DNA of 64,000 nucleotides from Pholidichthys leucotaenia (Eukaryota), in the NCBI GenBank assembly GCA_020510985.1, contig CM035843.1, positions 157,123,922-157,187,921 on the forward strand, in the 5' to 3' direction. Positions 6,510 to 8,123 of the stretch are shown piece after piece. Position 1 is the stretch's first letter. Each line of letters opens with the position of its first letter. The notes under the pieces were generated by a model, which worked only from the letters and a program-made list of their open reading frames with translations, searched no databases and had not been told where the DNA came from. The translations under genes and the position numbers were made by a program.

Positions 6510-8123
6510 CAGCCATGGACAAAATTGTTGGTACCCCTCTGTTAATGAAAGAAAAACCCACAATGGTCACAGAAATAACTTGAATCTGACAAAAGTGGTA
6601 ATAAATAAAAATTCTATGAAAATTCACCAATGAAAATCAGACAATGCTTTTGAATTGTGGTTCAACAGAATTATTTTAAAAAATAAACTCATGAAACAGG
6701 CCTGGACAAAAATGATGGTATCCCTAGAAAAGATTGAAAATAATGTGACCATAGGGACATGTTCAACCAAGATGTGTCCTCTAATTAACATCACAGGTGT
6801 CTACAAACTTGTAATCAGTCAGTCGGCCTATTTAAAGGGTGGCAATTAGTCACTGTGCTGTTTGGTGACATGGTGTGTACCACACTAAACATGGACCAGA
6901 GGACACAAAGGAGAGAGTTGTCTCAGGAGATTAGAAAGAAAGTTATAGACAAGCATGTTAAAGGTAAAGGCTATAAGACCATCTCCAAGCAGCTTGATGT
7001 TCCTGTGACTACAGTTGCACATATTATTCAGAAATTTAAGATCCATGGGACTGTAGCCAACCTCCTTGAACGTGGCTGCAGGAGGAGACAGATAATACGA
7101 ATGGTAACAAAAGAGCCCAAAACAACCTCTAAACACATTCATGGTGAACTCCAAGGTCAAGGTACATCAGTGTCAGATCGCACTATCTGTCGTTGTTTGA
7201 GCCAAAGTGGACTTCATGGGAGACGACCAAGGAGGACACCACTGTTGAAAACAAATCATAAAAAAGCCAGACTGGAATTTGCCAAACTGCATGTTGACAA
7301 GCCACAAAGCTTCTGGGAGAATGTCTTATGGACAGACGAGGCAAAACTGGAACTTTTTGGCAAAGCACATCAGCTCTATGTTCACAGACACAAAAATGAA
7401 GCATGCCAAGAAACAAACACTGTCCCTACTGTAAAACATGGAGGAGGTTCTGTTATGTTCTGGGGCTGCTTTGCTGCATCTGGCACAGGGTGTCTTGAAT
7501 CTGTGCAGGGTACAATGAAATCTCAAGACTATCAAGGTATTCTAGAGAGAAATGTGCTGCCCAGTGTCAGACAGCTTGGTCTCAGTCACAGGTCATGGGT
7601 CTTGCAACAGGATAATGACCCAAAACACACAGCTAAAAACACCCAAGAATGGCTAAGAGCGAAACATTGGACTATTCTAAAGTGGCCTTCTATGAGCCCT
7701 GATCTAAATCCTATTGAACATCTGTGGAAGGAGCTGAAACATGCCGTCTGGAGAAGGCACCCTTCAAACCTGAGACAACTGGAGCAGTTTGCTGATGAGG
7801 AGTGGGCCAAAATACCTGCTGAGAGGTGCAGAAGTCTCATTGACAGTTACAGAAATCATTTGATTGTAGTGATTGCCTCAAAAGGTTGTGCAACAAAATA
7901 TTAAGTTAAGGGTACCATCACTTTTGTCCAGGCCCGTTTCATAAGTTTATTTTTTAAAATGATTCTGTTGAACCACAATTCAAAAGCATTGTCTGATTTT
8001 CAATGGTTAATTTTCATAGAATTTTTATTTATTACCACTTTTGTCAGATTCAAGTTATTTCTGTGACCATTGTGGGTTTTTCTTTCATTAACAGAGGGGT
8101 ACCAACAATTTTGTCCATGTGTG
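6510..8123 (+). mobile_element. Tc1-family DNA transposon, apparently intact (IR-DR type), inserted in the host intron
   Basis: Terminal inverted repeats 'cagccatggacaaaattgttggtacccctctgttaatgaaag...' (6510-about 6720) and their reverse complement (about 7915-8123, '...ctttcattaacagaggggtaccaacaattttgtccatgtgtg'). TA target-site duplication at 6508-6509 and 8124-8125. Complete internal transposase ORF. Confidence 0.9.
6891..7904 (+). CDS. Tc1 transposase, full length (338 aa, DD34E)
   Basis: Paired-like helix-turn-helix N-terminus ([25 protein letters not shown]). Catalytic '[11 protein letters not shown]', 'VMFWGCFA', '[12 protein letters not shown]', '[15 protein letters not shown]'. No internal stop. 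The ORF track starts at an upstream in-frame codon (6855); ATG 6891 (MDQRTQ) is the likely start. Confidence 0.85.

Follow-up and report, generated by a model that had tools for sequence, protein, structure and literature searches.

Among the described transposons closest to the element studied here is Sleeping Beauty, a Tc1 element reconstructed from salmonids, for which structures of the transposase are available (5cr4, 2m8e). Its ends begin with CAGTT. Sleeping Beauty combines a PAI+RED paired-like domain and a GRRR-type motif with IR-DR ends of ~220 bp, which carry four binding sites, and it targets TA (PMC7827188). In this system specific recognition of the substrate relies in part on the GRRR AT-hook, RED binds to the outer direct repeats (DRs) as their recognition module and completes assembly of the synaptic complex, and small changes in the DRs or ends can severely reduce transposition (PMC7827188).

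A second point of comparison is ZB (Tc1-8B_DR), a native active zebrafish Tc1 element of ~1.6 kb with terminal inverted repeats (TIRs) of ~200 bp, a DD34E transposase of ~340 aa and a TA target-site duplication (TSD). Its activity has been proven by assay; the 20 full-length copies are >99% identical, their TIRs are 100% identical and they are <1 Myr old (PMC7913693). In a survey where an element was counted as intact when it had a TSD, TIRs and an ORF of at least 300 aa, 350 intact ZB/SB-type elements were reported. The four groups had intact copies in 105, 183, 26 and 36 genomes respectively, mostly those of ray-finned fishes (PMC9777934).

Here, we examined a Tc1-like element located in a window of 64 kb, the whole stretch of DNA that was analysed. 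The element has in common with Sleeping Beauty the DD34E triad and its spacing as well as the DNA-binding, IR-DR and TA-targeting features listed above, and it resembles ZB in the size of the element, TIRs and transposase and in the TA TSD. It differs from Sleeping Beauty in belonging to another lineage with other end sequences and in being a single unrepaired copy with a linker deletion, whereas Sleeping Beauty is a repaired consensus of proven activity. It differs from ZB in that its arms and copies are ~5% apart.

RESULTS

Organisation of the element

As read from the sequence, the element is 1,614 bp long (6510-8123) and is flanked by TA on both sides. A repeat finder and BLAST detected one long inverted repeat, 6508-6726 against 7907-8125, which measures 219 nt with the TA (217 nt without) and is 95-96% complementary; aligned arm against arm by BLAST, identity is 96.2% over 213 nt. 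Within each arm the repeat finder further identified an outer and an inner direct repeat of ~30 nt, 81-83% identical, whose starts are 187 bp apart; it paired 6509-6538 with 6696-6725 and 7900-7930 with 8087-8117. Four direct repeats at this offset in two long arms correspond to the IR-DR arrangement of Sleeping-Beauty-type Tc1 elements. Both subgroup features, long inverted repeats and four transposase sites, are thus present, and so are the features of DD34E/Tc1 members, namely the D/D/E triad, the TA with inverted repeats and a bipartite N-terminal helix-turn-helix (HTH) region. The element is a DD34E Tc1-like IR-DR cut-and-paste transposon with a TA duplication. Coordinates are given in Table 1.

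Table 1. Features of the element and of the surrounding host gene (positions in the 64-kb window)
Feature	Position	Strand	Remarks
Host coding exon MGVFEACSVLLELKNLPFKEKKNLKSAVVENGGLLSFVVNKQ	6263..6388	+	ORF from ATG 6263; CAG/GT donor at 6388/6389
Host intron GT...AG, 2,056 bp	6389..8444	+	Element + one TA = 1,616 bp of the intron; orientation same as host gene
Left TA target-site duplication	6508..6509		Sequence read; TA likewise at 63811-63812 before copy 2
Predicted empty insertion site	6508/8125		AAAAGTTTTA/TATGTGTG, sequence expected across the site without the element
Left inverted repeat, IR-DR type	6510..6726	+	Outer DR ~6510-6538, inner DR ~6697-6725; terminus CAGCC, not CACAC
5' untranslated spacer, left IR to transposase ATG	6727..6890	+	Colinear with Polypterus, ENA and Logan copies
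Transposase ORF, 337 aa + TAA	6891..7904	+	PAI + RED helix-turn-helix, NLS region, DD34E catalytic domain
Junction of 21-bp in-frame deletion, GAAAATTGATGACAAATCAAA in relatives	7084..7085	+	Protein and DNA alignments
Catalytic D149 codon GAC	7335..7337	+	Invariant column in relatives' alignments
Catalytic D241 codon GAT	7611..7613	+	DNDPKHT motif, aligned to SB100X
Catalytic E276 codon GAA	7716..7718	+	34 residues after D241
Right inverted repeat	7907..8123	-	Inner DR ~7908-7936, outer DR ~8095-8123; reverse-complement terminus CACAC, family form
Right TA target-site duplication	8124..8125		Sequence read
Next host exon (CSLIVTSDVSS...APLTLQ)	8445..8637	+	Completes BRCT domain; ends AAG/GT
Second family copy, start	63813..64000		Ended by window edge; CACAC terminus, TA before; 188 bp of near-symmetrical IR

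Insertion in an intron of a host BRCT gene

The element lies inside a genuine host intron that splits a BRCT domain. On the acceptor side, the intron ends with a polypyrimidine tract and AG (8443-8444). When the two exons are joined, the resulting 106-aa peptide is recognised as a BRCT domain (Pfam BRCT_2, 3.7e-9; BRCT, 2e-7). In a database search it was most similar to a spliced BRCT protein from an icefish, Champsocephalus gunnari, with 79% identity over 84% of the query and colinearity across the junction. The host protein may be PARP4-like, with a peptide resembling the N-terminus of PARP4. At the DNA level the exons are 77-83% identical to two fish assemblies, one of which is the icefish; this agrees with a teleost host, probably a percomorph, and the host is not Polypterus senegalus.

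The orthologous icefish intron is only ~170 bp long, against 2,056 bp in the window, and shares no sequence with the element. Comparison of the icefish locus with the whole window by tblastx and blastn matched the two BRCT exons and nothing else. An earlier annotation made from the sequence (hereafter the first-pass annotation) had placed the insertion in a host intron and described both inverted repeats as IR-DR-type and ~200 bp long, with a TA duplication. The GT...AG join of the exons into one BRCT domain and the icefish colinearity support the former, and the 217-nt arms with TA on either side bear out the latter.

A family spread among distant fishes

Database search retrieved 4,812 relatives of the transposase at E<=1e-30, the closest with 88% BLASTP identity (90% in an alignment of 11 relatives), and the full-length ones are 344 aa long. 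The full-length form of the family is an element of ~1,635 bp encoding a 344-aa transposase. Among the closest known relatives is a Polypterus senegalus element annotated as 'TCB1 transposase' (KAG2465172.1, here P0002; CM029069.1:40498996-40503027, here L001), which is alike from TA to TA with 89.7% identity, the two ORFs being 92.8% identical when gaps are left out. It shares with the family in the window the TA duplication, the IR-DR layout and the CACAC...GGACAAAATTGTTGGTACCC ends. It differs in that Polypterus-type copies encode 344 aa with a complete LPGRGRRRKIDDKSKRR linker, whereas the window copy lacks KIDDKSK, reads LLERGCRR and has a CAGCC left end.

Protein clusters at 90% identity or more that lie near the best matches contain many Polypterus 'TCB1 transposase' entries of 343-344 aa. 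Other members come from Pampus punctatissimus, Prochilodus magdalenae, Cirrhinus mrigala and Amphiprion percula, which fall in the same cluster as Polypterus, and from Acipenser ruthenus and A. sinensis, which fall in another cluster of this kind. Annotated copies reach the full 344 aa in Polypterus and Acipenser; those of Pampus, Prochilodus and others are near-full-length or partial. Relatives in Oryzias (medaka) are found at 77-80%.

Clusters at 90% identity or more thus take in Cladistia, Characiformes, Cypriniformes and percomorphs, and Chondrostei have a related one. These fish lineages split hundreds of millions of years ago. Similarity of ~90% between lineages separated for so long, which includes the non-coding ends, points to horizontal transfer. 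That Tc1 elements have spread horizontally in ray-finned fishes is well documented (PMC9777934, PMC3516227).

A full-text literature search with the end sequence and N-terminal peptide strings returned no published name for the family. Two candidate identities were considered. The lamprey/teleost Tc1 group of Kuraku et al. fits poorly, as its Group 1 is reported to be absent from medaka, yet the present family has medaka relatives. The ZB/ZB-like group differs in its ends and protein length, with CAGTG termini and ~340 aa in three entries of PMC9777934 against CACAC and 344 aa here. One of these three, ZB-Polsen (1,618 bp, 340 aa, CAGTG/CAGTG), is the one ZB-like element that PMC9777934 lists for Polypterus, and it is a different family.

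The catalytic domain is undamaged

The transposase is encoded by a single uninterrupted ORF running from the ATG at 6891 to 7901, followed by the stop codon TAA at 7902-7904. Pfam domains were assigned at residues 7-55 (HTH_SB), 65-136 (HTH_Tnp_Tc3_2) and 145-297 (DDE_3). In comparison with the sequences of solved structures, the last 229 residues can be aligned over their full length to 5cr4, the SB100X catalytic domain (E=5e-78), with 54% identity over 228 residues and one single-residue indel, and the N-terminal half matches 2m8e and 6urs (SB PAI) and 1u78 (Tc3).

Besides the DDE triad, the copy retains the glycine-rich box, the NLS-like region and the motifs WTDEAK, DNDPKHT and DLNPIEHLW. 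In an alignment of 50 Tc1 transposases, 106 columns show conservation of 90% or more; the window copy deviates at two of them (panel median 3), these being T151A, which adjoins the catalytic D149, and K175T.

On re-inspection D149, D241 and E276 are kept and no stop occurs within the ORF. The first-pass annotation, which had described an uninterrupted 338-aa DD34E ORF with every block intact, was thus right about the open frame, the catalytic triad and the catalytic motifs. The length has to be corrected to 337 aa, and the intactness does not extend to the DNA-binding half, which carries a 7-residue deletion.

A private deletion between the PAI and RED subdomains

Both HTH subdomains were found, but the junction between them is shorter by 7 residues. 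The deletion takes out KIDDKSK, residues 66-72 of the 344-aa family protein. In the DNA alignment it appears as a clean gap of 21 bp, and GAAAATTGATGACAAATCAAA is kept in the Polypterus and Logan copies. Beside the deletion lie three substitutions in the GRGRRR motif, P59L, G60E and R63C, so that the window copy reads LLERGCRR. The transposase is therefore not colinear with the full-length family form.

All of 11 close relatives carry LPGRGR(R/K)RKIDDKSKRR between PAI and RED, and five further cluster members (Pampus, Polypterus, Acipenser, Prochilodus and a Logan run) likewise have a complete linker. We extended the comparison to a panel of 50 Tc1 transposases, 53-89% identical and including the window copy, in which we measured the segment that begins where PAI helix 3 ends and extends to RED helix 2. 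Its length is 41 residues in 47 sequences, 40 in one, 42 in one and 34 in the window copy. The 7 deleted residues are present in all relatives compared, with the exception of one that has a 1-residue gap. The linker deletion is private to the window copy among the 49 aligned relatives and the five cluster members. Searches with the deletion junction GTGGCYGCAGGAGGAGACRGATAAT and with the subfamily-specific end sequence gave 0 matches each in a metagenome collection holding little fish DNA.

In an AlphaFold (AF2) model of the full-length Polypterus protein P0002 (mean pLDDT 82.8), the PAI helices are placed at residues 12-52, the linker at 53-68 and RED helix 1 at 69-81. According to this model the deleted residues 66-72 would comprise the last three residues of the linker and the first four, that is the first turn, of RED helix 1. 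Judging from the position of the lesion and the roles of the corresponding regions in Sleeping Beauty, it is most likely that the transposase has a defect in recognising the ends or in synapsis, and therefore that the copy is not autonomous.

Altered bases at the left terminus

We aligned six termini: both arms of the window element, the start of copy 2, both Polypterus arms and one ENA arm. Five of them read TA followed by CACAC(A/G)TGGACAAAATTG. The left end of the window element alone reads TA followed by CAGCCATGG, i.e. CAGCC. The family end sequence is thus found at the right end (CACAC) but not at the left, where two substitutions occupy positions 3-4, inside the first five bases.

Once changes are polarised by the opposite arm, the second copy and the Polypterus element, 4 of the 219 nt of the left arm and 6 of the 219 nt of the right arm are private substitutions. 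A higher figure of 5-6% 'private' substitutions in the inverted repeats, obtained against other species, was discarded as an overestimate: several of these changes are common to both arms and copy 2 (for example at 6597-98 and 8035-36) and represent subfamily differences. Changes within the direct repeats are few. The outer-left DR is altered only at terminal bases 3-4, the inner-left DR has one change, the inner-right two and the outer-right none.

A neutral substitution pattern and a divergent second copy

Substitutions unique to the window copy were counted in the ORF at sites where the Polypterus (L001), ENA (L002) and Logan (L003) copies agree. The 28 substitutions found are distributed 8/10/10 over the codon positions, and 18 are nonsynonymous and 10 synonymous; random mutation of this ORF would be expected to give 68-73% nonsynonymous, 22-27% synonymous and 4.4-5% stop changes. 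In contrast, the more divergent ENA lineage shows 13/11/55, a signature of purifying selection that sets it apart from the distribution in the window copy (chi-square p=0.005, Fisher p=0.003). CpG>TpG/CpA changes, which are typical of methylated vertebrate DNA, account for 7 of the 28. The even spread over codon positions and the CpG changes form the pattern expected of neutral decay. An ORF hit by 28 random substitutions would remain free of stops with a probability of ~0.24-0.28, or about one in four, so that the open ORF is unremarkable. Some of the substitutions scored as private may be fixed differences of the host's subfamily and not changes that followed the insertion.

A second copy with repeats >95% identical, which had been reported to start at 63813, was indeed found there, 56 kb away, and is 95.2-96.2% identical to the window element over 188 bp. 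The two arms are separated by a K2P distance of 0.052, and copy 2 is at 0.050 from either of them; near-identical (>99%) sister copies or TIRs are thus not found within the 64-kb window. On the assumption that the arms were identical at insertion, and with a rate borrowed from zebrafish, these values give a rough age of ~6 Myr (t=K/2r, r=4.13e-9; rate and formula from PMC7913693).

In the assemblies searched, no identical protein is on record for the 337-aa ORF, for its GTG-extended form of 349 aa or for a neighbouring LINE ORF of 1,059 aa.

DISCUSSION

Our results are best accounted for by an ordinary, seemingly fixed, several-million-year-old decaying copy of a widespread Tc1 family, in which the ORF has stayed open by chance; we put the probability of this reading at about 0.8. 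The data show the anatomy, the lesions and the fact that no relative shares them, the neutral substitution pattern and the position in an intron; the loss of activity is inferred. By homology with Sleeping Beauty, the transposase of the family would bind the four direct repeats via the bipartite PAI+RED domain and a GRRR-type AT-hook, synapse the ends, cut at the outer repeats and re-insert the element at a TA, which would thereby be duplicated. The copy described here would have entered a TA in the intron splitting the host BRCT domain and would have decayed neutrally since then, for roughly several million years. Point substitutions would meanwhile have accumulated to ~2-3%, those in the ORF bearing the mark of CpG decay, and the copy would have gained P59L, G60E and R63C in GRGRRR and the two changes at bases 3-4 of its left end. 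The 21-bp in-frame deletion would have shortened a PAI-RED linker that is otherwise invariant in length and clipped RED helix 1.

The first-pass annotation had regarded the element as intact and as a candidate for current activity. This view does not hold in the face of the private linker/RED deletion, the AT-hook-like changes, the left-end substitutions, the neutral pattern and the ~5% divergence. It had also called copies in such a condition rare among vertebrate Tc1 families, which is difficult to reconcile with the 350 'intact' ZB/SB-type elements of a single survey (PMC9777934) and with the existence of ZB as a native active element (PMC7913693).

Several readings in which the copy, or its ORF, has kept a function were weighed against that of a decaying copy. 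If the 337-aa transposase worked despite its shorter linker, the copy could be autonomous and active at present or until very recently. The open ORF, the DD34E triad, the TIRs with their four DRs and the TA duplication would be in line with this, as would the small number of departures at deeply conserved columns and the presence of another copy 56 kb away. However, the deletion is unique in a panel of 50 sequences in which the segment is otherwise of near-constant length, GRGRRR is altered and the left terminus is mutated. Moreover, the codon-position pattern is flat with CpG decay, arms and copies are ~5% apart compared with >99% identity in active ZB, and the identical protein is not on record in the assemblies searched. 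We therefore consider an active copy very improbable. That host selection has preserved the open frame as a domesticated (exapted) transposase gene is barely credible. The ORF still sits between both TIRs, with the TSD, in an intron, the even distribution of its private substitutions among codon positions shows no purifying selection, and the ~170-bp intron of the icefish ortholog is devoid of element sequence; all that speaks for it is the open ORF, in the same orientation as the host gene.

A copy defective in its coding sequence might nevertheless be mobilised in trans by a 344-aa transposase supplied from elsewhere in the genome, a possibility that we judge unlikely but not negligible. It is favoured by the DR cores, which are nearly intact, by the preservation of most of all four DRs and by the existence of full-length 344-aa family ORFs in other fishes. 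The bases changed at the cleavage end argue against it, given that small end or DR changes can strongly cut Sleeping Beauty transposition (PMC7827188), and the ~5% divergence suggests that the family burst in this genome is old. A more demanding proposal requires both that the shortened transposase is functional or the copy mobilised in trans, and that the family is live in this host following horizontal transfer. It has slim prospects. If it were true, a native and active Tc1 element with unusual CACAC ends would reside in the source genome, and the copy would provide a natural test of the linker length that a paired-like domain tolerates.

A decaying Tc1 copy, which remains our preferred reading, matters little beyond annotation. 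For annotation, the lesson is that an open ORF with TIRs, a TSD and the DDE residues is too loose a criterion for an active Tc1 element. An ORF of 1 kb has about a one-in-four chance of being open after ~3% neutral divergence, and in-frame deletions and end mutations become visible only by comparison with relatives. For the host gene, the insertion supplies ~1.6 kb of a 2,056-bp intron that measures ~170 bp in the icefish. For the family, the identity of ~90% between copies in very distant fishes adds a further example to the well-documented horizontal spread of Tc1 elements.

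Host exons, tandem arrays and motifs of the left inverted repeat

Comparison of the window with the Champsocephalus gunnari (icefish) locus carrying orthologous BRCT exons revealed no shared exon beyond the two that flank the intron with the Tc1 element. A candidate short coding exon was located about 40 bp 5′ of the second copy of the Tc1 family. Tandem arrays of a unit of about 21 bp (TTTTTCTCATAAATTTGCAAC and variants) flank the pair of BRCT exons on either side; their pseudo-translations read as repetitive 'ICNFF/KFATFS', and they may be a satellite or a portion of another repeat. 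AATAAA-type motifs are present in the left inverted repeat (IR) of the Tc1 element, in sense orientation relative to the host gene. In principle, and speculatively, these could act as cryptic polyadenylation signals for the host pre-mRNA.

Features located in the window
Feature	Positions	Strand
AATAAA-type motifs, left IR of Tc1 element	6601-6612, 6680-6690	+
~21-bp tandem arrays	5054-5161, 5470-5587, 5723-5789, 8706-9174	
Candidate short coding exon, ATG...MEPLRNQSQPVTSVSPSQREDVPVPDKMR then GT	63684-63772	+
Retroelement stretches 3′ of BRCT exons	19290-23163	-
	40348-44114	+
	12550-15992	+
	25362-27669 / 56654-58916	+
Relic, more divergent Tc1-like transposase	23859-24479	-
Same	55594-56195	+
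Same, short piece directly 5′ of second copy	63379-63640	+

Other transposable elements

Retroelements predominate in the 55 kb 3′ of the BRCT exons. They comprise, among others, a LINE ORF2 of 1,059 aa with an ORF1-like ORF upstream, an LTR-retrotransposon pol of 1,045 aa accompanied by a gag-like ORF and by a second, degraded copy, and several fragments of L1-like ORF1/endonuclease. Among the divergent Tc1-like relics are ORF fragments of 206 and 149 aa with WSDETK/VKHGGGS motifs. Several Tc1 families have inserted in the region.

The Tc1 family in other fishes

The Tc1 element (6510-8123) and an element of the bichir Polypterus senegalus (CM029069.1; 1116-2756 of locus L001) share about 90% nucleotide identity. 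Both belong to the same Tc1 family, one in a teleost and the other in a bichir host, and the likeness extends into the non-coding IRs. Protein clusters of this family at ≥90% identity additionally take in members from sturgeons, characiforms, cypriniforms and several percomorphs. Such identity between teleost and bichir copies, together with protein clusters spanning distant fish groups, implies that the family has moved between fish lineages by repeated horizontal transfer.
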